Of a stretch of 38,024 bases of DNA, positions 1-7,714 are shown one piece after another (positions within the stretch are counted from its first letter, which is position 1; every line of letters begins with the position of its first letter). The notes under the pieces are model-generated. The model saw only the letters and a list, made by a program, of their open reading frames with translations, was not told the origin of the DNA and did no database searches. A program made the position numbers and the translations under genes. Source of the DNA: a virus (taxonomy: Duplodnaviria; Heunggongvirae; Uroviricota; Caudoviricetes); the IMG/VR virus record IMGVR_UViG_2531839235_000024; one strand, written 5' to 3'.

Positions 1-262
1 ATGAACAGGCTTTTTTCAGGTCGTTCCGATATGCCCTTTGCGCTGTTGCTTCTCGCACCCAGCTTATTACTGCTGGGCGGTCTGGTTGCGTGGCCAATGG
101 TGTCGAATATCGAAATTAGTTTTTTACGTCTGCCGCTCAATCCCAACATCGAGTCAACGTTTGTTGGGGTAAGCAACTATGTGCGTATTCTCTCCGATCC
201 CGGCTTCTGGCACTCGCTGTGGATGACGGTCTGGTATACCGCGTATAGCGCGGCGATTTTTT
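1..262 (+). pseudogene. 5' fragment of a host sugar ABC transporter permease gene (MalF/UgpA-like; possibly ycjO) interrupted by the prophage insertion
   Basis: ORF 1..354 starts with a hydrophobic N-terminal TM segment and the permease-typical FVG..N(Y/F)V...W...W(Y)T motif, then loses permease character near 245-265 where repeated TTTGATAC end motifs begin. The ycjO identity is from memory and unverified. Confidence 0.5.
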
Positions 263-330
263 TGATACCGATTTGCATTTCATTTGATACCGCTGAAAAA
301 CGCCGATACGCAACTTATTTGATACTAAAT
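258..330. repeat. Putative transposase-binding end repeats (three direct TTTGATAC(C/T) motifs at 261-269, 283-291, 318-326)
   Basis: Seen directly in the sequence, between the mom stop (372) and the host gene fragment; one sub-motif (CTGAAAAACGCC, 292-303) resembles the CGAAAAACGCG of the Mu R1 site as I recall it. Confidence 0.4.
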
Positions 331-371
331 CGGCGCTTTTCTTTTGGGTTTTAGAATGAGTTTTTAAGCGT

Positions 372-1109
372 TCACTCACTCTCTTTTAAACCAGTTTTAA
401 CTGTTTGTGGTTTTGGGTAAGGCTGGACTTTGAATAGCTTTGTGTTGAGGCGTTTTCTGGCCCTCTTGTTCAGAAACCGGATGTAACGAAACTGACGGAA
501 TTTATGAACACTGGCTCTGTCGATATTAGCCCTCAGATGTTCACCTCGCTGTCCGCCTCGTTTAATGGCATTCCTGCAAATCTCGTGATACCACTCGCCA
601 TCAAGTTCATAGAATGTTGATTCGTGGCTGCCTACATAATCAAAATTGCTTGCCTGATACACGACACCAAGACAGCCACAACGCTCATCTGCAAACGACT
701 GAACCCACTGTACCTGCGGATAAAGCTGCCTGATTAGCTTGAGCGCGTAACTGATTGCCCTTGATTCGGAGTTTCTCGGCATACAGTCATGCAGCCATAA
801 CCGGTTAAGCTCCATATATTCACGGTTCCGCGTGCCCGTTACGACGCGTGCACCACTGTTTGGATTAAGGGCATAGCCCCATTGCATTACGCCAACCAGC
901 TCCCGTTCTGAAAATATGCCCAGATGAAGGTAGGAGTTATTTACGAAACGGTGGCTGTAATGTTTATTGACGATGACCAGTCTGGCCAGCCAGCAACTTA
1001 TTGTCTCAACCCGCAACTCACGGGAGCCATAACCAACGATATTGTCGTTATAGCGAATAAGTTCAGGCGTGCTGATGATACGGGATGTGACTTGCTTTCT
1101 GTTCCCCAC
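372..1109 (-). CDS. mom: Mom-like DNA modification protein (adenine hypermodification, anti-restriction)
   Basis: 245-aa ORF at the extreme right end of the prophage, immediately downstream of and overlapping a Com-type zinc-finger gene, as in Mu; GTG start inferred from the ORF track. Confidence 0.7.
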
Positions 1110-1263
1110 GACAGGATTTCCTTGTGTATGTGGGGTGCTCTGTGGCGCTCGGAGATGTGATTTGATTGAGGGTTTTACAGCGCGGACATTTTACTTCCAG
1201 ATAACTGAAACTGGCCCGTGCCAGTAGCTTATTGCAGTGTCGGCACCGTATGTTTCGATACAT
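1063..1263 (-). CDS. com: Com translational activator of mom (zinc finger)
   Basis: Internal ATG at 1263 preceded by AGGAGG; product [30 protein letters not shown]...EHPT matches the Mu Com CxxC-N16-CxxC zinc finger pattern as I recall it; 3' end overlaps the mom start. Confidence 0.8.
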
Positions 1264-1304
1264 GGCCGCATAACCTCCTGCTTTGTTGTTGATGCCTTTC
1301 TCAT

Positions 1305-1335
1305 GCAATCGATCGACAAAAACGATCGATTCGAT
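1305..1335. promoter_or_regulatory. GATC (Dam site) cluster upstream of com-mom; candidate methylation-sensitive regulatory region
   Basis: GATC at 1311-1314 and 1324-1327 within CAATCGATCGACAAAAACGATCGATTCGATT, about 50-65 bp upstream of the com ATG; Mu mom is known to be controlled through clustered Dam sites upstream of its promoter. Confidence 0.35.
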
Positions 1336-1663
1336 TTGTTTAATTGATACAACAAATAGATTGAAAAGTCATCAACAATGATTCAGGGCGGTGATTATTT
1401 ACTTAAAGAAAACGAAGACTTAGGTGGTGAAAACGATCATAAAATGATCATTTTATTGACTTTTTATACAGTGAAGGTAGGATCGCGCGTATATGTAGTA
1501 TGTTTCAAATCAACAGGATACTACATAAAGGGAGGTCCAGATAGTTACAGCTATCTGGACCTGGAACAAATTCGCATCAATGCTTTACTTCGAGCTCGTG
1601 TCGTATCCTATGATATTCCCCGGTCTCCTGTAAAGCAGAGATGCATAAAAAGGAGATCTTTAC

Positions 1664-1834
1664 ATGGATAAAGAGCCTGTTTGCCCTGCCTGTAAGACTC
1701 CCTTACAGCTCATCTATCGCCGTTCTCGATCTCAAAATGGCAAGACATACAAACCCCAAAATGCGTCCTGTTTCAGGATGCTGATATGTCCTGCCTGTTC
1801 TCCCCGGAGGGAAAGTACACAAAACGTGCATTAA
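1664..1834 (+). CDS. Small zinc-ribbon protein (56 aa; CPAC...CPAC), not in the supplied ORF track
   Basis: ATG at 1664 preceded by AAAAGGAGA with about 7 nt spacing; translation MDKEPVCPACKTPLQLIYRRSRSQNGKTYKPQNASCFRMLICPACSPRRESTQNVH; followed by a perfect hairpin at 1844-1863. Confidence 0.4.
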   Translation: MDKEPVCPACKTPLQLIYRRSRSQNGKTYKPQNASCFRMLICPACSPRRESTQNVH

Positions 1835-1843
1835 CAAATTCAC

Positions 1844-1863
1844 CCGGCAGGGAAACCTGCCGG
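1844..1863. terminator. Bidirectional stem-loop between convergent genes (CCGGCAGG-GAAA-CCTGCCGG)
   Basis: Perfect 8-bp stem with GAAA tetraloop sitting exactly in the 38-bp gap between the stop of the plus zinc-ribbon ORF (1834) and the stop of the minus 81-aa ORF (1873). Confidence 0.45.
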
Positions 1864-1872
1864 TCGGTATTG

Positions 1873-2118
1873 TTACATCATAGTACCGTCAGTTCCGGGC
1901 TGAACCGGCTCTGGTTGCTCTACGGCTTGAGGCTCATTCTCCGTGCTGTTTTCAGCCGGAGAATGGCCAACCATTCGGGCCAGCACTTCATCAACATATG
2001 CGTCGATTTGTGCCTCAAAATCCTTGCGAACCTGCGCCTTCAGCACGCGGTTCACTTCTTCAGAATAAAGTGCCTGTTTGACAAGCTCTTCAGTAACCGT
2101 GCCTTTAATCTCTGGCAT
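1873..2118 (-). CDS. Hypothetical acidic protein (81 aa)
   Basis: ATG at 2118 preceded by AAAAGGAG with 7 nt spacing; protein-like amphipathic composition; the overlapping plus ORF 1786..2247 looks like antisense junk. Confidence 0.5.
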   Translation of the reverse strand: MPEIKGTVTEELVKQALYSEEVNRVLKAQVRKDFEAQIDAYVDEVLARMVGHSPAENSTENEPQAVEQPEPVQPGTDGTMM

Positions 2119-2153
2119 GAATATTCTCCTTTTGCAGGTATATTGCCCCGTTA

Positions 2154-2336
2154 TCAGAGCGGGGTCGGGTCGTTTGGGGATGACGGTGCCTGTGCTGTTT
2201 TACTGAGTTTTTCAGCTGCCGCATCATCAATTTTACGGCGAATATAATTTCTGATGACCTTATAACCGCCGCTCACCAGATATAACGCACTGACCACTGC
2301 GCAGAAATAAAGCAGCATTGTATGAACGAATGTCAT
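2154..2336 (-). CDS. Hypothetical small membrane protein (60 aa, one N-terminal TM helix)
   Basis: Hydrophobic segment LLYFCAVVSALYLVSGG followed by a charged tail; AAGG-type RBS upstream; immediately upstream of the 81-aa gene on the same strand. Confidence 0.4.
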   Translation of the reverse strand: MTFVHTMLLYFCAVVSALYLVSGGYKVIRNYIRRKIDDAAAEKLSKTAQAPSSPNDPTPL

Positions 2337-2402
2337 ATAACCTTACCTTTGATATTGACTACATAATTCGTTATCGGGTAAAAACATCGAAGCGACTGAT
2401 AA

Positions 2403-2482
2403 CCACTCCTTCGGGAGTATTTTTATTTTCCTTTATGGGTTAGGTAGCTCCCGCCAGCCATATCATGACCGGCGGGATTTTT
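2403..2482 (+). terminator. Two tandem plus-oriented terminator-like hairpins (ACTCC-TTCG-GGAGT + T-run; CCCGCC...GGCGGG + T7)
   Basis: Stem-loops at about 2405-2428 and 2449-2482, each followed by a T-run on the plus strand; they abut or overlap the esterase stop codon (2483-2485). Confidence 0.3.
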
Positions 2483-4531
2483 TTATTCTGTTACCGCTTT
2501 TTTCACTTCCACCACAATGCTGTCAATCAGCACCGGGTAAGTTGCATTTTTTGTGATATCCGTTACGCGGAGTTTGTCCACCGGGAAAGTTCCTACTGGT
2601 GACTGCGTCAGGGTAAACGCGGCACCATCCTGACCATCAATAACCGGAATAACCTGAAGGCTGTTATTTCCTGCAAAACGGAAGGCCAGCGTATGCCATT
2701 CATTATCAAATGCACCAAAGGTTCCCAGTTTCTGGTTATTTGTTGCCACTTTTGCATTGTGGTACATCACATTCAGGTCTTTTGCGTCTGTCTGGATGTA
2801 GAACGATGCCAGCAGATTATTCCCTGCATCCCCTGTCAGGGTGACACCCTGCGGCAGAGAGGAAACCGGCCAGTAAAGCGCCATGACATACTGGTTTGCC
2901 ACCAGGTCGCCCGGTACTTTAAAACGACAACTGATTAAACCACCATTTTTCAGCAGTTCAGCACCAGTACCGGCATCATGATCCAGATACCAGGATGATT
3001 TACCTGTTTCCTTGGTCAGTTTCATTGCCTTACCACCTGTGCCTCCTGCATCACTGATAATTTCAGCTTTACCGCCAGCCGGCTCCCAGCCCTGGGCTTT
3101 CAGATTTCCTTCTGACTCACTGACACGGTAAGACAGCAGTGTTGTGGTTACTGCTTCAGTTTCTGAAGGTGACGGCACTGGTGCTTCAGTTTCAGAAGAT
3201 GGAACATCGGCTTTTACTGTGGTTCGCCCCGCATGAGTCAGAACTGCCGTGGCCAGACGGTCGGAAATAATCCCACGACGTGCCCATGAACTGAAATGGC
3301 TGGCCCGGTCCGTAGATGTCCAGGTGGCGGCACTGTTACGCCACGTTGAGCCGTAATAACCAATGGATTCAATATCCGGGTCTTCTGCCGGATTGTTGGT
3401 GGGTACATTCGCGCCATTTTCATCTGTCATTAATGGGACGAAATGAATGTTTTTATCTGTTTTATTTTTGTAGCCGTCATAGATTGCCTGGTATGCCTGT
3501 TCGTTTTTCTGTTTCCAGAAATACGTGGTATCACCACAAATCCACGGAACGCCAGCAGCACTGCCACCGGTACACTGTTCCGCCTGTTCAGCCAGGTCTG
3601 CGCGGAATTTTTCCACCATCGCCAGAAACAGCGCAGAATGCTCCGTCGGCTTCGCATCAATATCAAACTCGCCCTGCATCCACACCACAGCAAGCAGGCG
3701 GTTTTTCGGGTTCTTCGCCAGTGCCGCTTTTGTCCGGCTGATTAAGTCCTTATACAGCGGCTTATCCACACCCCAGCGGGCTGAGTCCTCTGAAGCACCC
3801 GTGCTGTCACTGTACGTGCCGTCAGCACCCGCCGTGAATGCAGAACCACCACGGCAGCAGGGAACCAGCAGAATCCCCGCATCTGCCGGAATAAACGGCA
3901 GCAGTTTTTTGGCAATGTGAAGCCCCTGACCCACGGTGCCATATTGCCCTTTAGCCACATCCGCTTTCGGGTGATTTTTTCCACTCATATCCTGCACATC
4001 ATGCAGACAGTGGTCGGCCAGAATGATGTCGTTATACTGACAGGCTTTACCTCCCGGCGTGACTGTACTGCGACGGGCTAACTGCATAATACGCGGTTCG
4101 GGGCGGTCATATGTCTCCGGCAGTGGCAGACCTTCACCGTAAGCCATACCGTTTGACTGACCAGCAAGAACCACCACGTAATACCAGGAAGGGGAGCTGG
4201 AAGCCGTTTCATTTCCTGCCGGACGGGTATGTGTTTCTGCATTATCCCAGTCTGACGGTTCAGTAGTACCGGCAACATCAGCACTTAACGGAATGACAGC
4301 ACCAATACCCGCTCCGGTAATTTCCACGTTCGGATCACCGGATACTGGCCTTACCCACAGGCAATCCTGTGTATTAAAACTGATGAGACAGTCAGCAAAT
4401 GTCATTCCTCCTTTCGTTTCAGCAGGAGGAAAGGGAGCCTCAAGAAATGCCGCTGTACCACCGGAAACTTTAACGGTAAAGTTTCCGGGCATTGATGATA
4501 GTTGAACCCATTTGGACGTCATAATATTCAT
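2483..4531 (-). CDS. Carbohydrate esterase, SASA/SGNH-hydrolase type (sialate O-acetylesterase-like, NanS-p-like) with a C-terminal lectin-like domain
   Basis: 682-aa ORF containing the esterase blocks VVLAGQSNGMAYGEG and VVWMQGEFD, a Ser/Thr/Pro/Glu-rich linker (SSETEAPVPSPSETEA) and a roughly 240-aa C-terminal domain; AGGA RBS before ATG at 4531. It has no counterpart at this position in Mu. Confidence 0.6.
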   Translation of the reverse strand: MNIMTSKWVQLSSMPGNFTVKVSGGTAAFLEAPFPPAETKGGMTFADCLISFNTQDCLWVRPVSGDPNVEITGAGIGAVIPLSADVAGTTEPSDWDNAETHTRPAGNETASSSPSWYYVVVLAGQSNGMAYGEGLPLPETYDRPEPRIMQLARRSTVTPGGKACQYNDIILADHCLHDVQDMSGKNHPKADVAKGQYGTVGQGLHIAKKLLPFIPADAGILLVPCCRGGSAFTAGADGTYSDSTGASEDSARWGVDKPLYKDLISRTKAALAKNPKNRLLAVVWMQGEFDIDAKPTEHSALFLAMVEKFRADLAEQAEQCTGGSAAGVPWICGDTTYFWKQKNEQAYQAIYDGYKNKTDKNIHFVPLMTDENGANVPTNNPAEDPDIESIGYYGSTWRNSAATWTSTDRASHFSSWARRGIISDRLATAVLTHAGRTTVKADVPSSETEAPVPSPSETEAVTTTLLSYRVSESEGNLKAQGWEPAGGKAEIISDAGGTGGKAMKLTKETGKSSWYLDHDAGTGAELLKNGGLISCRFKVPGDLVANQYVMALYWPVSSLPQGVTLTGDAGNNLLASFYIQTDAKDLNVMYHNAKVATNNQKLGTFGAFDNEWHTLAFRFAGNNSLQVIPVIDGQDGAAFTLTQSPVGTFPVDKLRVTDITKNATYPVLIDSIVVEVKKAVTE

Positions 4532-4621: not shown

Positions 4622-5182
4622 TTATTTTTCCGAAACGCTCGCAGGATAATAACGATAAAGGGTTGAAAGGCCGATATCAAAAATAAGTGCCACCTGTCTT
4701 CGACTGACACCCCCGGCCAGTAAACGCCCGACCTGCTCGTATTGTTCCTGCGTGAGACGACGGGGTCTGCCGCCGGTTCGTCCCCTTTCACGGGCAGCTG
4801 CAAGACCAGCCCGTGTCCGTTCGACAATTAATTCACGCTCCATTTCTGCCAGCGCACCCATTATGTGAAAAAAGAAGCGCCCCATGGGGGTTGACGTATC
4901 AATGTTGTCAGTAAGACTACGAAAATTTATCCCCTGTTGCTGTAATTCATCTGTCAGCGCAACAAGGTGGCGCATACTGCGCCCCAGCCTGTCCAGTTTC
5001 CAGACCATCAGTGTGTCACCGGGTTTTAGTTTCTTCAGTGCCCGCTTCAGTCCCGGCCGCTGTGTCGTTTTACCACTCATTTTGTCTTCAAAAATCTGCT
5101 CACATCCTGCACATTCCAGCGCATTTCTTTGTAAACCGGTGTTCTGGTCATTTGTTGATACGCGTATATAGCCAATCAGCAT
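4622..5182 (-). CDS. gin: Gin/Hin/Pin-family serine DNA invertase
   Basis: 186 aa; N-terminal MLIGYIRVSTNDQNTGLQRNALECAGCEQIFEDK...TLMVWKLDRLGRS and C-terminal HTH GGRPRRLT match Mu Gin and serine invertases nearly residue for residue. Confidence 0.92.
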   Translation of the reverse strand: MLIGYIRVSTNDQNTGLQRNALECAGCEQIFEDKMSGKTTQRPGLKRALKKLKPGDTLMVWKLDRLGRSMRHLVALTDELQQQGINFRSLTDNIDTSTPMGRFFFHIMGALAEMERELIVERTRAGLAAARERGRTGGRPRRLTQEQYEQVGRLLAGGVSRRQVALIFDIGLSTLYRYYPASVSEK

Positions 5183-6242: not shown

Positions 6243-7154
6243 TTACACTGAACTTACCGTTCTCCAGGCATTATTAATATAAATCTGAACCGGGCGATAA
6301 TAGACCCCACCGATATTGTCCGCAGACCGGGAGCCGGTTTCCTGCACGTTAATACCGGAAAGCATACAACCGGAAGGTGCGCTGTAATTCCATGATATTT
6401 CATTGCCTCCGGGTGAATGATAGCTCTGTGCTCCAAGCTGAACATTCTGTACATACCGGCCATCTGCGGTTGACTGCGTCATTCCTGACGTGATGTTGAT
6501 ATCCTGCGTTCCGTCAAAAGGAACGCCATTAATATTTCTTGGGGTGGCGAGTCTGTTTGCTGCCACGGCGGTTCCACCCGATGGCAGGGCATCAGCAGCC
6601 TTATTTACCGTTTCCCGTAAACCGACGTTATCGATAAAAGCGCCTTTATCCGGAATGTCTGCGCCGTTCTGCTCCCTGCGCAGGTAACGGTTATCACCTT
6701 CGCTTTTGCTGTAAACATCCAGATTATTACGGGCGGTTCCCGCATTCTCCAGGTCGGCAAGGTTCTGATCCTTCGCCAGAGCATTAACGTCACCGGGACC
6801 AAGACTGTTTTTTGTGGCAAGCGCCCCAAGACCAAGATAACCACGGGCAAGACGCTGGGCTTCCGCACCGGCATCAGCAATTTCTTTCAGGTTGTTTTTC
6901 CGGGAAAAGGCATTCGCAGCGATAATGGCTTTAATGGACAGCGTAAGCTGGTTTAACTGCGCCTTATCCGGCTGAATACTGGCTTCAGCCAGAATATTCA
7001 GCAGTTCGGCCTGGAGAATATTCAGCCAGTCCTGACCAATCCAGCTGATACCTTTTTGTCCGTCACCTTCGGTAAACCAGGTGGTGGTATTACTCTGCGC
7101 CGGTGCCAGCGCAGGCATATTCGCCACGCCGGAATTATTATCAACATGAAACAT
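6243..7154 (-). CDS. Tail fibre protein (S-like; constant N-terminal part fused to the currently expressed variable C-terminus)
   Basis: 303 aa, follows gp48 with a TAATG stop/start overlap; its C-terminal third is paralogous to the plus-strand Sv' segment; a gix-like site lies inside the coding frame at 6612-6637. Confidence 0.75.
   Translation of the reverse strand: MFHVDNNSGVANMPALAPAQSNTTTWFTEGDGQKGISWIGQDWLNILQAELLNILAEASIQPDKAQLNQLTLSIKAIIAANAFSRKNNLKEIADAGAEAQRLARGYLGLGALATKNSLGPGDVNALAKDQNLADLENAGTARNNLDVYSKSEGDNRYLRREQNGADIPDKGAFIDNVGLRETVNKAADALPSGGTAVAANRLATPRNINGVPFDGTQDINITSGMTQSTADGRYVQNVQLGAQSYHSPGGNEISWNYSAPSGCMLSGINVQETGSRSADNIGGVYYRPVQIYINNAWRTVSSV
6612..6637. repeat. Second gix/hix-like site (TTCCCGTAAACC-GA-CGTTATCGATAA) inside the tail-fibre gene, inverted relative to the site at 5237-5262
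   Basis: Inner half-site and core are the reverse complement of the inner half of the first site (11 of 12 plus core); the flanking roughly 170-bp arms (5251-5430 vs 6445-6623) are inverted repeats of about 80% identity. Confidence 0.5.
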
Positions 7155-7714
7155 TAAATAGTCTCCTCTTCATGGCTGTTTGCATACACGTAAATAAACG
7201 TCTGCCATGCAGGCTTATAACGGTTCAGAATACATTCCAGCGCACCGCCTTCATAAATACGCAGCGGCGTGAGAATATCATCCAGCACATTCATATTCCG
7301 GTAGCCGGTTTCACTGTTAATCGTGACAATACTGACCCACTGTGAATCCGGTGATGGCTGAATATCTATTTCATAACCAAACTCTGCCGCAAACCGGATA
7401 TAAAATTCACGGTTAAGAGAGGGTTTCATCCGGTATTTATTCCCGGCATAACGCTGACGCTCCTGAATTGTTGCGCCGGTCATATCACATTCCGGTAACC
7501 CCAGATAACGCTCCCAGTCTTCCAGCAGCAGACGGGATGAATCAGGAAAACGTTCTGCCAGCATCTGGTTACCGGTCCAGGAAACACGCTCCGTGGAATG
7601 ACTGAGGCCCAGGCACAAAGCCGCAAGAACGGATGACGGCCGCTTATCCCATGCCAGCCCGTCAGGCAGCAACTGCAACAGGGCACGCTGATGCGGGGTC
7701 AGGGTTACAGCCAT
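7154..7714 (-). CDS. Tail/baseplate protein, Mu gp48-like
   Basis: 186 aa, between the baseplate J-like gene and the tail fibre as in Mu; translationally coupled to S. Confidence 0.6.
   Translation of the reverse strand: MAVTLTPHQRALLQLLPDGLAWDKRPSSVLAALCLGLSHSTERVSWTGNQMLAERFPDSSRLLLEDWERYLGLPECDMTGATIQERQRYAGNKYRMKPSLNREFYIRFAAEFGYEIDIQPSPDSQWVSIVTINSETGYRNMNVLDDILTPLRIYEGGALECILNRYKPAWQTFIYVYANSHEEETI

Follow-up and report, generated by a model that had tools for sequence, protein, structure and literature searches.

The stretch of DNA analysed in this study, hereafter the window, comprises 38,024 nucleotides (nt) of a Mu-like prophage that lies in reverse orientation in Escherichia coli O157:H7. 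The interval under study (1264-2482) is situated between com and the gene for a NanS-p-type esterase, and since gin abuts com in phage Mu, all that lies between gin and com in this prophage is extra. The interval carries a gene for a four-Cys zinc-ribbon protein of 56 amino acids (aa) on the + strand (1664..1834), genes for a 60-aa single-pass membrane protein (2154..2336) and an 81-aa acidic protein (1873..2118) on the - strand, and a GAAA-tetraloop hairpin (1844..1863, both strands) between the convergent stops. These three open reading frames (ORFs), their ribosome-binding sites and the 8-bp hairpin had been located correctly in the original prediction, which read them as one accessory cassette. 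The single cassette was not borne out: the zinc-ribbon unit and the block formed by the esterase gene and the two - strand genes, which belong to the families DUF1378 and DUF826, occur independently of one another. On balance, we lean towards an explanation in which the interval consists of two unrelated modules in a tail-to-tail arrangement, with the 1844-1863 hairpin at their junction, the second module being headed by a leader that would act as a translational switch. Module 1 (1844-4531, - strand) comprises the esterase gene, the DUF1378 gene, the DUF826 gene and a terminator, and module 2 (about 1456-1863, + strand) comprises a sigma-70-like promoter, a leader, a strong Shine-Dalgarno (SD) sequence, the zinc-ribbon gene and the shared hairpin. 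The most informative feature of the interval, the conserved structured leader at 1484-1663, was absent from the original prediction.

Sixty loci were gathered from complete genomes, IMG/VR and metagenomes. The E. coli polymorphism set consisted of 17 unique variants and the leader set of 28 unique segments, 20 of them of the zinc-ribbon type. The interval, which is 100% identical to a stretch of NZ_CP038328, occurred in 233 of the 5426 complete E. coli genomes, for the most part with an identity of 95-99%, and some genomes had up to four copies. This recurrence and the frame-specific purifying selection found in each of the three ORFs bear out the proposal that they are real genes. When the interval was compared with phage records by blastn in near and distant modes, only two records of Shiga toxin (Stx) phages with an inserted Mu-like phage were found. 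Scans of a contig set with one genome per species gave no match, the E. coli representative evidently being without this prophage. Our literature searches found no paper with these peptide sequences, and the papers on Sp18 are silent on the region. The GC content of the interval was 44.4% versus 53.6% for the window; the description of the interval as AT-rich holds for 1264-1663 (38.3% GC) but not for 1650-2100 (ca. 50%).

The zinc-ribbon ORF is a real small gene in its own right and belongs to a family that has no name yet. Its ATG is preceded by AAGGAG at a distance of 8 nt, and its product has CPAC at residues 7-10 and 42-45 and an isoelectric point (pI) of 9.66. The frame was open in 17 of 17 E. 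coli variants, in which the own frame showed 7 synonymous to 5 nonsynonymous changes and a ratio of nonsynonymous to synonymous substitution rates (dN/dS) of 0.20 (P = 0.007), while the other five frames gave 0.6-1.0. In a second, Salmonella-type clade, the zinc-ribbon frame, and that frame only, gave a dN/dS of 0.21 (P = 0.024). An exhaustive phmmer search of 1.84 billion representatives revealed a distant relative (P0033) of 53 aa, which was 47% identical and kept the four knuckle cysteines; C7, C10, C42 and C45 were invariant in this comparison and C36 was not. The prophages that host P0033 are Mu-like, and their flanking genes (phs, sbmC and dacD) look like those of Salmonella. There the gene occupies the same position, divergent from com and about 390 nt away from it, has its own strong terminator, and is found in prophages without gin, the esterase gene or the DUF pair. 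The gene is independent because selection acts on its own frame in two clades, because the homologue P0033 exists and because the second clade has no upstream ORF.

Profile searches of the three peptides placed the two - strand proteins in DUF1378 and DUF826 and left the zinc-ribbon peptide without a family, none of its matches in Pfam, PHROGs, NCBIfam and PADLOC being above threshold. Trm112p, the best family candidate, was rejected at 18.2 bits, below the cutoff of 22, and a sequence search of the PDB yielded only a chance CxxC match to thioredoxin (E = 1.1). A word-indexed protein search returned near-identical E. coli copies only. In a single-sequence AlphaFold2 model with a predicted local distance difference test (pLDDT) value of 69, strands were placed at residues 15-20 and 36-41, so that two conserved CxxC knuckles, each beside a predicted beta strand, would make the protein a zinc ribbon in the generic sense. 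A Foldseek search of the PDB with this model gave no significant neighbour (best E = 2.4). Our best guess is that the protein is a nucleic-acid-binding accessory of the com/DNA-modification end of the prophage.

Upstream, an ATG at 1641 shares the reading frame of the zinc-ribbon ORF in 16 of the 17 E. coli variants and in the Salmonella-type clade, where it would add an eight-residue extension, M-H/C-KKEIFI; in the window a 1-nt deletion at 1662 breaks this frame. Since ATG 1641 has no good SD sequence, the start was taken as 1664, and the longer form is possible but not preferred. In two loci of the Salmonella-type clade, L049 and L050, further co-directional ORFs (6362-7274) follow the zinc-ribbon gene, with products of 100, 81 and 122 aa in L049 and of 100 and 122 aa in L050. 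They had no recorded Pfam match and occupy the place of gin and the esterase block in the E. coli phages.

The original prediction had remarked that the zinc-ribbon gene was missing from the ORF track, and this matches RefSeq, in which the Prokaryotic Genome Annotation Pipeline (PGAP) treats 1378-1834 as one pseudogene ('hypothetical protein, frameshifted'), with the mark 'frameshifted' in every relative inspected. The PGAP reference is a 154-aa fusion that occurs in some strains (L014; P0005, 205 member sequences) and arises via a 1-nt G insertion; the gene is annotated as dead because this accidental fusion serves as the reference protein. At the junction, CTTTA[T]CATGGAT[G]AAAGAG, three indel states were found, of which only one, needing two specific 1-nt insertions, gives the fusion, and the others give products of 97, 135 or 137 aa in a different frame. 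The upstream part appears in the window as a mechanical 97-aa ORF (1378..1671, + strand) that overlaps the mom control region and the leader. Its frame was disrupted by frameshifts or stops in 10 of the 17 unique variants, at two further places, and it showed no frame-specific selection (dN/dS 0.42 in frame 0, P = 0.086; 0.38 in frame 2). The Salmonella-type clade has no equivalent long upstream ORF, and no homologue of the upstream part was found outside near-identical E. coli prophages. The '97-aa ORF' is thus not a gene but a conceptual translation of the leader, and the region is wrongly annotated as a pseudogene. A hypervariable patch within it, described below as the second stem-loop, was also considered as coding variation of the 97-aa ORF and rejected, since one of its sequence types (type C) shifts the frame and adds stops.

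The leader (1484-1663, + strand) is about 175 nt long and contains three stem-loops (SL1 to SL3). Between the two clades it was 80% identical from the -10 element to the ATG, or 82-85% without the variable hairpin, as compared with 73% for com, 63% for the zinc-ribbon ORF and 56% for the com-proximal spacer. The fold of 1488-1670 (183 nt) gave the three stem-loops with z = -5.85. A search of Rfam at a permissive E-value returned nothing below E = 0.27 and nothing near a gathering score. SL1 (1492..1527) has the form TATGTAGTAT-N16-ATACTACATA; its stem was conserved, its loop differed between the clades, and since no compensatory changes were seen, the support for SL1 is conservation only. SL2 (1533..1562), a perfect 12-bp hairpin in the window, occupies a hypervariable position at which eight sequence types (A to H) were found, all of which fold. 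In the five ungapped types, 100% of the cells were paired and six of nine pairs had changed on both sides, a result equalled by none of 500 shuffles. The whole-leader MAFFT alignment was not used for this count because indels misaligned the arms of SL2, and per-type folding and ungapped stems were used instead. The SL2 unit was tandemly duplicated in four lineages (L005, L052, L053 and L058). SL3 (1574..1644) is a long hairpin in which the 17 E. coli variants differ at only two sites in 88 nt and which is 85% identical to that of the Salmonella-type clade; its basal stem was kept via G.U wobbles in type E and via new pairs in type H. Types D and H of SL2, as well as the SL3 base in type E, contain G.U wobbles that are valid in the + strand RNA only.

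The leader is preceded by a sigma-70-like promoter, TTGACT-16-TAGGAT (1456..1483, + strand; a consensus match only), and the motif was found in 24 of the 28 unique leader segments, including L007, and as TTGACT-16-TAAGAT in L050. On the opposite strand, a promoter-like motif, TTTACA-18-TAGGAT (1605..1634), was present in 28 of 28 segments; the type H leaders keep it although its + strand pairing partner is changed and the spacer differs in sequence while staying at 18 nt. It may give rise to a cis-antisense RNA of ca. 70 nt, running from about 1598 to about 1525, a candidate overlapping the leader and ending in a terminator-like hairpin. On the - strand, SL2 received a terminator-like score both in the window and in L007. 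The 3' strand of SL3 holds an anti-SD element, GGUCUCCU (1622..1629), complementary to the SD region AGGAGAUC of the zinc-ribbon gene (1651..1658). The anti-SD was GGTCTCCT in 23 of the 28 segments and one base off in the others, and AAGGAGATC was found in all 20 unique segments of the zinc-ribbon type, from both clades. The invariance of the anti-SD and the antisense motif goes beyond what pairing within SL3 explains. When SL2 and the 5' strand of SL3 were blocked in silico, the minimum-energy fold paired the anti-SD with AGGAGAUC in three zinc-ribbon-type leaders from both clades.

From these features, the leader may be pictured as a translational switch with two states. While SL3 is intact, the anti-SD would be held inside it and the SD would be free; once released, the anti-SD would pair with AGGAGAUC and hide the SD. 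The cis-antisense RNA would start at TTTACA-18-TAGGAT inside SL3 and end at SL2, likely a terminator or recognition hairpin, and by pairing with SL2 and the 5' strand of SL3 it would free the anti-SD and turn translation off. The compensated versions and duplications of SL2 would then be specificity variants.

The leader is not tied to the zinc-ribbon gene. In L005-, L007- and L058-type prophages, the same promoter and leader were joined to an unrelated 68-76-aa gene, and the point of the swap was exactly the 3' end of SL3. Since the same leader occurs with unrelated cargo, it is an expression platform and not specific to the zinc-ribbon gene, and the slot between com and the esterase block is a small cargo site. 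The alternative cargo (L005, L007, L020, L024 and L058; equivalent to window positions about 1645-1870) encodes a protein beginning MDKLTTD (MDKLTTDQKLQAARIAADITIAAMTST...) and is followed by a convergent gene for a 66-78-aa protein (MDKNKKQPDTKGLE...); both cargo types start with ATGGATAAA. In L006-type loci (also L027-L035; equivalent to window positions about 1360-1870), the leader was absent and a different + strand ORF of 97 aa was found (MDNHVTTRNRKMIENAEIYNDYF...), 86 aa of which PGAP annotates as intact. No Pfam or PADLOC match was obtained for the proteins of the alternative slots.

Module 1 is a known three-gene block with its terminator, that is, known families in a new setting. Its first gene, which forms the right boundary of the interval (2483..4531, - strand), encodes the NanS-p-type esterase of 682 aa (Pfam SASA, 5.6e-12; DUF6645, 4e-70; phrog_143). 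The 60-aa protein matched Pfam DUF1378 (PF07125) with 131.5 bits (cutoff 25; 1.2e-38) over residues 1-59 of 59 and phrog_494 with 3.5e-34. It has one hydrophobic stretch (residues 3-21, mean Kyte-Doolittle value 2.02), corresponding to one membrane helix, and a basic juxtamembrane helix. Its ATG is preceded by the ribosome-binding site AAGGTAAGG, and all three small ORFs have AAGGAG-type sites at 7-8 nt. Homologues were found by tblastn in 309 phage records, mostly of Stx-converting phages, whose proteins were 52-54% identical to the present one; the motif LYFC...SGGY...R...R..I..A.EK was kept. The 81-aa protein matched Pfam DUF826 (PF05696) with 57.1 bits (cutoff 25; 2.1e-15) over residues 1-54 and phrog_311 over its full length (2.6e-30). 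It has a pI of 4.36, a net charge of -9.4 and AAGGAG 7 nt ahead of its ATG; its N-terminal half is helical, the N-terminal ca. 50 residues are conserved with lambdoid homologues, and its tail is variable, acidic and Pro-rich. Among the 17 variants, purifying selection was detected in the correct frame only, both for the DUF1378 gene (dN/dS 0.37, P = 1e-6) and for the DUF826 gene (dN/dS 0.27, P = 2e-7).

The block was intact in every Mu-like relative inspected, including relatives only ca. 84% identical over the interval, and the zinc-ribbon frame was likewise open throughout the 17 E. coli variants; a check of conservation across related prophages had been called for in the original prediction. 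The gene order esterase, DUF1378, DUF826, holin S and endolysin was observed in VT2-Sakai, ArgO145 and the non-Stx lambdoid phage PhiR5_2, and in the Stx and lambdoid phages DUF1378 and DUF826 are always downstream of a NanS-p-type esterase in the Q-dependent late operon. The lambdoid block (933W, VT2-Sakai and ArgO145) consists of the same three families, identically ordered and oriented, with a terminator behind them. It is flanked by stx and holin S and immediately precedes the lysis cassette; the present block, in contrast, lies between gin and com with no adjacent holin or endolysin gene, and the DNA similarity between the lambdoid DUF genes and the present ones is below blastn detection. 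In Stx2a phages, ORFs with DUF1378 and DUF826 have been described between nanS-p and S (PMC10462455), and mitomycin C raised nanS-p by 1-2.4 log (PMC10462455), in keeping with Q-dependent late expression. This was the only paper found to mention both DUFs, as ORFs of unknown function, and we found none linking NanS-p with Mu-like phages. Since the synteny holds in two unrelated phage types, it would argue for a function connected with the esterase, or at any rate one that does not depend on the holin; we infer that DUF1378 and DUF826 serve as small accessory proteins of the late phase, acting either together with the esterase or without the holin.

Two further observations concern the esterase. 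Its N-terminus differs from that of the NanS-p proteins of Stx phages, the first ca. 110 residues having no match to DUF1737. The gene comes right after gin and the tail-fibre genes, which raises the question of whether the protein is virion-associated in this prophage.

The hairpin at which the modules meet, CCGGCAGG-GAAA-CCTGCCGG, has a perfect 8-bp stem with 6 GC pairs and stands 10 nt past the + strand stop and 10 nt past the - strand stop. Its 60-nt context gave z = -4.06, and none of 200 shuffles folded as well. On either strand the hairpin has a weak tail (UCGGUAUUGUU and GUGAAUUUGUU), and because of these weak U-tracts it was not listed by the terminator scan. A related hairpin with a T-run stands at the same place in L007, after DUF826, and ArgO145 has a terminator with a T-run directly after DUF826. 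The hairpin is a plausible terminator of the esterase-DUF1378-DUF826 transcript, and it probably terminates the zinc-ribbon transcript too. Two further terminator-like hairpins were found on the + strand in the spacer between the esterase and DUF1378 genes (2405..2487), opposed to the direction of these genes: ACTCC-TTCG-GGAGT with a UUCG loop and a T-run (2405-2428), and a 13-bp stem with T7 (2449-2487). They could mark an antisense transcript opposite DUF1378 and DUF826; no convincing + strand promoter for them was found. This spacer is much shorter in L004-type relatives, and in ArgO145 an A-tract and a GC hairpin come right after the esterase stop.

At the other end, the interval is bounded by com (1063..1263, - strand; 66 aa), the start of the com-mom operon, whose product matched Pfam Zn_ribbon_Com with 46.8 bits (2e-12) and is labelled a 'Com family' protein by PGAP. 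Beyond it lie mom (372-1109, - strand; Pfam Mom, 4.5e-77) and, at the left edge of the window, a ycjO fragment; on the far side of the esterase, gin (4622-5182, - strand) is followed by tail genes. In strain NE 1092-2 (NZ_CP038328), the first 29 nt of ycjO are fused directly to window position 1059, so that ca. 1029 bp (window 30-1058) are deleted, and with them the remainder of the ycjO fragment, the end of the prophage and most of mom; in accord with this, mom is missing from the PGAP annotation of the strain.

The zinc-ribbon gene is divergent from com-mom, as had been predicted, with a spacer of 400 nt between them. Upstream of com, this spacer contains a perfect 9-bp inverted repeat, AATCGATCG-N7-CGATCGATT (1307..1331), with two GATC sites, which was identical in seven of seven aligned E. 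coli loci, including the leaderless L006 type. It is probably part of a Dam-sensitive mom control region, by analogy with Mu, in which the Dam/OxyR-controlled mom region likewise has GATC-rich palindromic sequence upstream of com; unlike that of Mu, the present region is shared with a divergent promoter. Further GATC sites occur at 1435 and 1446, just upstream of the + strand -35 element, at 1481, overlapping the + strand -10 element, and at 1655, inside the SD. The cluster suggests a Dam/OxyR-type control common to the divergent promoters, as known for Mu mom. The GATC in the -10 element was rejected as an essential Dam switch, since this site is lost in three unique leader variants (seven loci). 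In the second-clade locus L049, a gene for a C5 cytosine DNA methylase (PF00145; 4398-5610) follows com in place of mom, which is present in the sister locus L050; this looks like a modification enzyme swapped behind the same Com regulator.

Several points weigh against the two-module explanation or parts of it. The dN/dS values of the zinc-ribbon gene rest on 12 and 9 single-nucleotide polymorphism sites in closely related sequences. The first cysteine is lost in three variants (C7Y), L16P occurs in one, the L054 copy is frameshifted and the L055 copy is a remnant; these damaged copies, and the sister prophages that replace the gene, indicate that it is dispensable. In the leader, SL1 and most of SL3 are conserved but without compensatory changes, and two substitutions weaken SL3. 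The SL2 stems were excised with the structure in mind, and the three bulged types were omitted from the covariation count. The unconstrained fold of the full leader already pairs the SD partly with coding sequence, so that the contrast between the ON and OFF states is not clean. Both promoters are consensus matches, the number of which in this region is not above shuffled expectation, and the tail of the antisense terminator (CCCUUUAUGU) is a weak U-tract. The gene families, the synteny, the selection, the conservation and the covariation of SL2 are observed directly, while we infer the promoters, the antisense RNA and the switch, as well as all protein functions. For module 1, in which both DUFs are families of unknown function, the link between the pair and the esterase is one of synteny.

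A more far-reaching form of this explanation was also considered, namely, that the unit is an undescribed riboregulated module in which an antisense small RNA governs the anti-SD/SD switch, SL2 sets specificity between co-resident prophages, and interchangeable small effectors, the zinc-ribbon or the 68-76-aa protein, serve as type I-like toxins or as accessories of DNA modification or anti-restriction. We regard this as a doubtful though conceivable extension. Functionally, the zinc-ribbon unit looks most like small genes under the control of a leader and a cis- or near-cis antisense RNA, as in type I toxin-antitoxin loci such as hok/sok, tisB/istR-1 and RalR/RalA. The likeness to them lies in a long structured 5' untranslated region better conserved than the ORF, in mutually exclusive pairings that would hide or expose the SD, and in a predicted short antisense RNA that has a 5' tail and ends in a hairpin. 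The differences are that the product here is not a membrane peptide, that the leader carries alternative cargo and that no Rfam match was obtained.

The unit could accordingly be taken as a type I toxin-antitoxin locus outright, in which the cis-antisense RNA keeps a toxic zinc-ribbon protein from being translated, so that the locus stabilises the prophage or aborts infection. The combination of a small ORF, a long conserved structured 5' untranslated region, an anti-SD, a conserved antisense promoter motif and a terminator-like hairpin fits this reading, as does the hypervariable and duplicated SL2, which resembles the specificity diversification of cis-antisense regulators. RalR/RalA of the rac prophage is also a precedent for a small type I toxin that is not a membrane protein. 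Nevertheless, we consider it unlikely: the protein is not hydrophobic (maximum 19-residue hydropathy 0.10), sister prophages use the same leader for an unrelated 68-76-aa protein, and no match to PADLOC or toxin families was found. The copies with C7Y or a frameshift keep the antisense promoter motif, which is compatible with the model but does not support it.

The original prediction had proposed that the zinc-ribbon protein is a second Com-like activator of mom and that the membrane and acidic proteins form a toxin-antitoxin or exclusion module, a proposal that we now hold to be improbable. Like Com of Mu, the zinc-ribbon protein is small and basic, has two CxxC knuckles and is encoded at the com-mom end of a Mu-like phage; its gene is divergent from com in two clades, one second-clade locus keeps it together with com while the C5 DNA methylase replaces mom, and BLASTP against the Com of the window gave a local match to the second knuckle of Com, covering one CPxCKT knuckle only (E = 0.015 for this single comparison). 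However, there is no similarity at the family level: no match to Pfam Zn_ribbon_Com (PF10122) was found at E <= 1 and none to the PHROG Com families, and the knuckles are 31 residues apart versus 16 in Com. Unlike com, moreover, the gene is divergent with a predicted promoter of its own and is absent from Mu, and the L006 and L007 types retain com-mom without it, so that mom control does not need the gene. Membership of the Com family is thus not supported by the sequence, although the conserved place beside com in two clades, in one of which the C5 methylase has taken the place of mom, would allow for some functional link. As for the other two proteins, they are a DUF pair of lambdoid late operons, induced with the lytic cycle (PMC10462455), which is the wrong timing for protection of a lysogen. 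Searches of Pfam, NCBIfam and PADLOC returned only DUF1378 and DUF826 for them, with no toxin, antitoxin or defence family, and the toxin-antitoxin or exclusion pair is therefore unsupported.

It is similarly improbable that the hairpins at 1533-1562 and 1844-1863 are tandem terminators insulating a toxic com-mom from read-through of the esterase operon, the leader having no RNA-regulatory role. Unregulated expression of mom is harmful, as is established for Mu, the two hairpins stand in series upstream of Pmom, and the - strand terminator score of SL2 in the window and in L007 would suit such a role. On the - strand, however, the G.U pairs of SL2 (types D and H) and of the SL3 base become A.C mismatches, the whole 175 nt are conserved and not the hairpins alone, and the second clade keeps the leader and SL2 although its downstream neighbours are on the + strand, so that there is no convergent operon to stop. 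Finally, we give very little credence to the RefSeq/PGAP view that 1378-1834 is one decayed gene, with the zinc-ribbon ORF as the C-terminal remnant of a ca. 154-aa protein and nothing functional in it: the 'frameshifted' mark in all relatives inspected, the intact 154-aa fusion and phrog_26524, which spans the upstream part, are in line with it, but the fusion requires two specific insertions, the upstream frame is broken in 10 of the 17 variants in which the zinc-ribbon frame is always open, purifying selection is confined to the zinc-ribbon frame, in the second clade the leader nucleotides and zinc-ribbon ORF persist but a matching upstream ORF is missing, and the upstream part has no homologue beyond near-identical E. 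coli prophages.

For the esterase block, the Mu-like context parts DUF1378 and DUF826 from the lysis cassette for the first time, which argues for a role tied to the NanS-p esterase, or at least one independent of the holin. The NanS-p esterase is a colonisation factor of enterohaemorrhagic E. coli (EHEC), and the present setting narrows the experiments on the function of both DUFs. The zinc-ribbon unit represents a new small-gene family with a conserved and, as we read it, riboregulatory leader, mis-annotated as a pseudogene across hundreds of genomes. The gene is called dead in about 4% of complete E. coli genomes (233/5426), many of them Shiga toxin-producing E. coli or EHEC, and in Salmonella-type prophages. 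The finding is of an unsurprising kind, yet it is concrete, can be tested and bears on the biology of EHEC prophages. With its invariant 8-nt anti-SD, its predicted antisense RNA and natural compensatory variants that can serve as controls, the leader offers a compact, testable case of translational control, and a corrected annotation adds a small protein and a conserved regulatory RNA to the prophage inventory of these pathogens.

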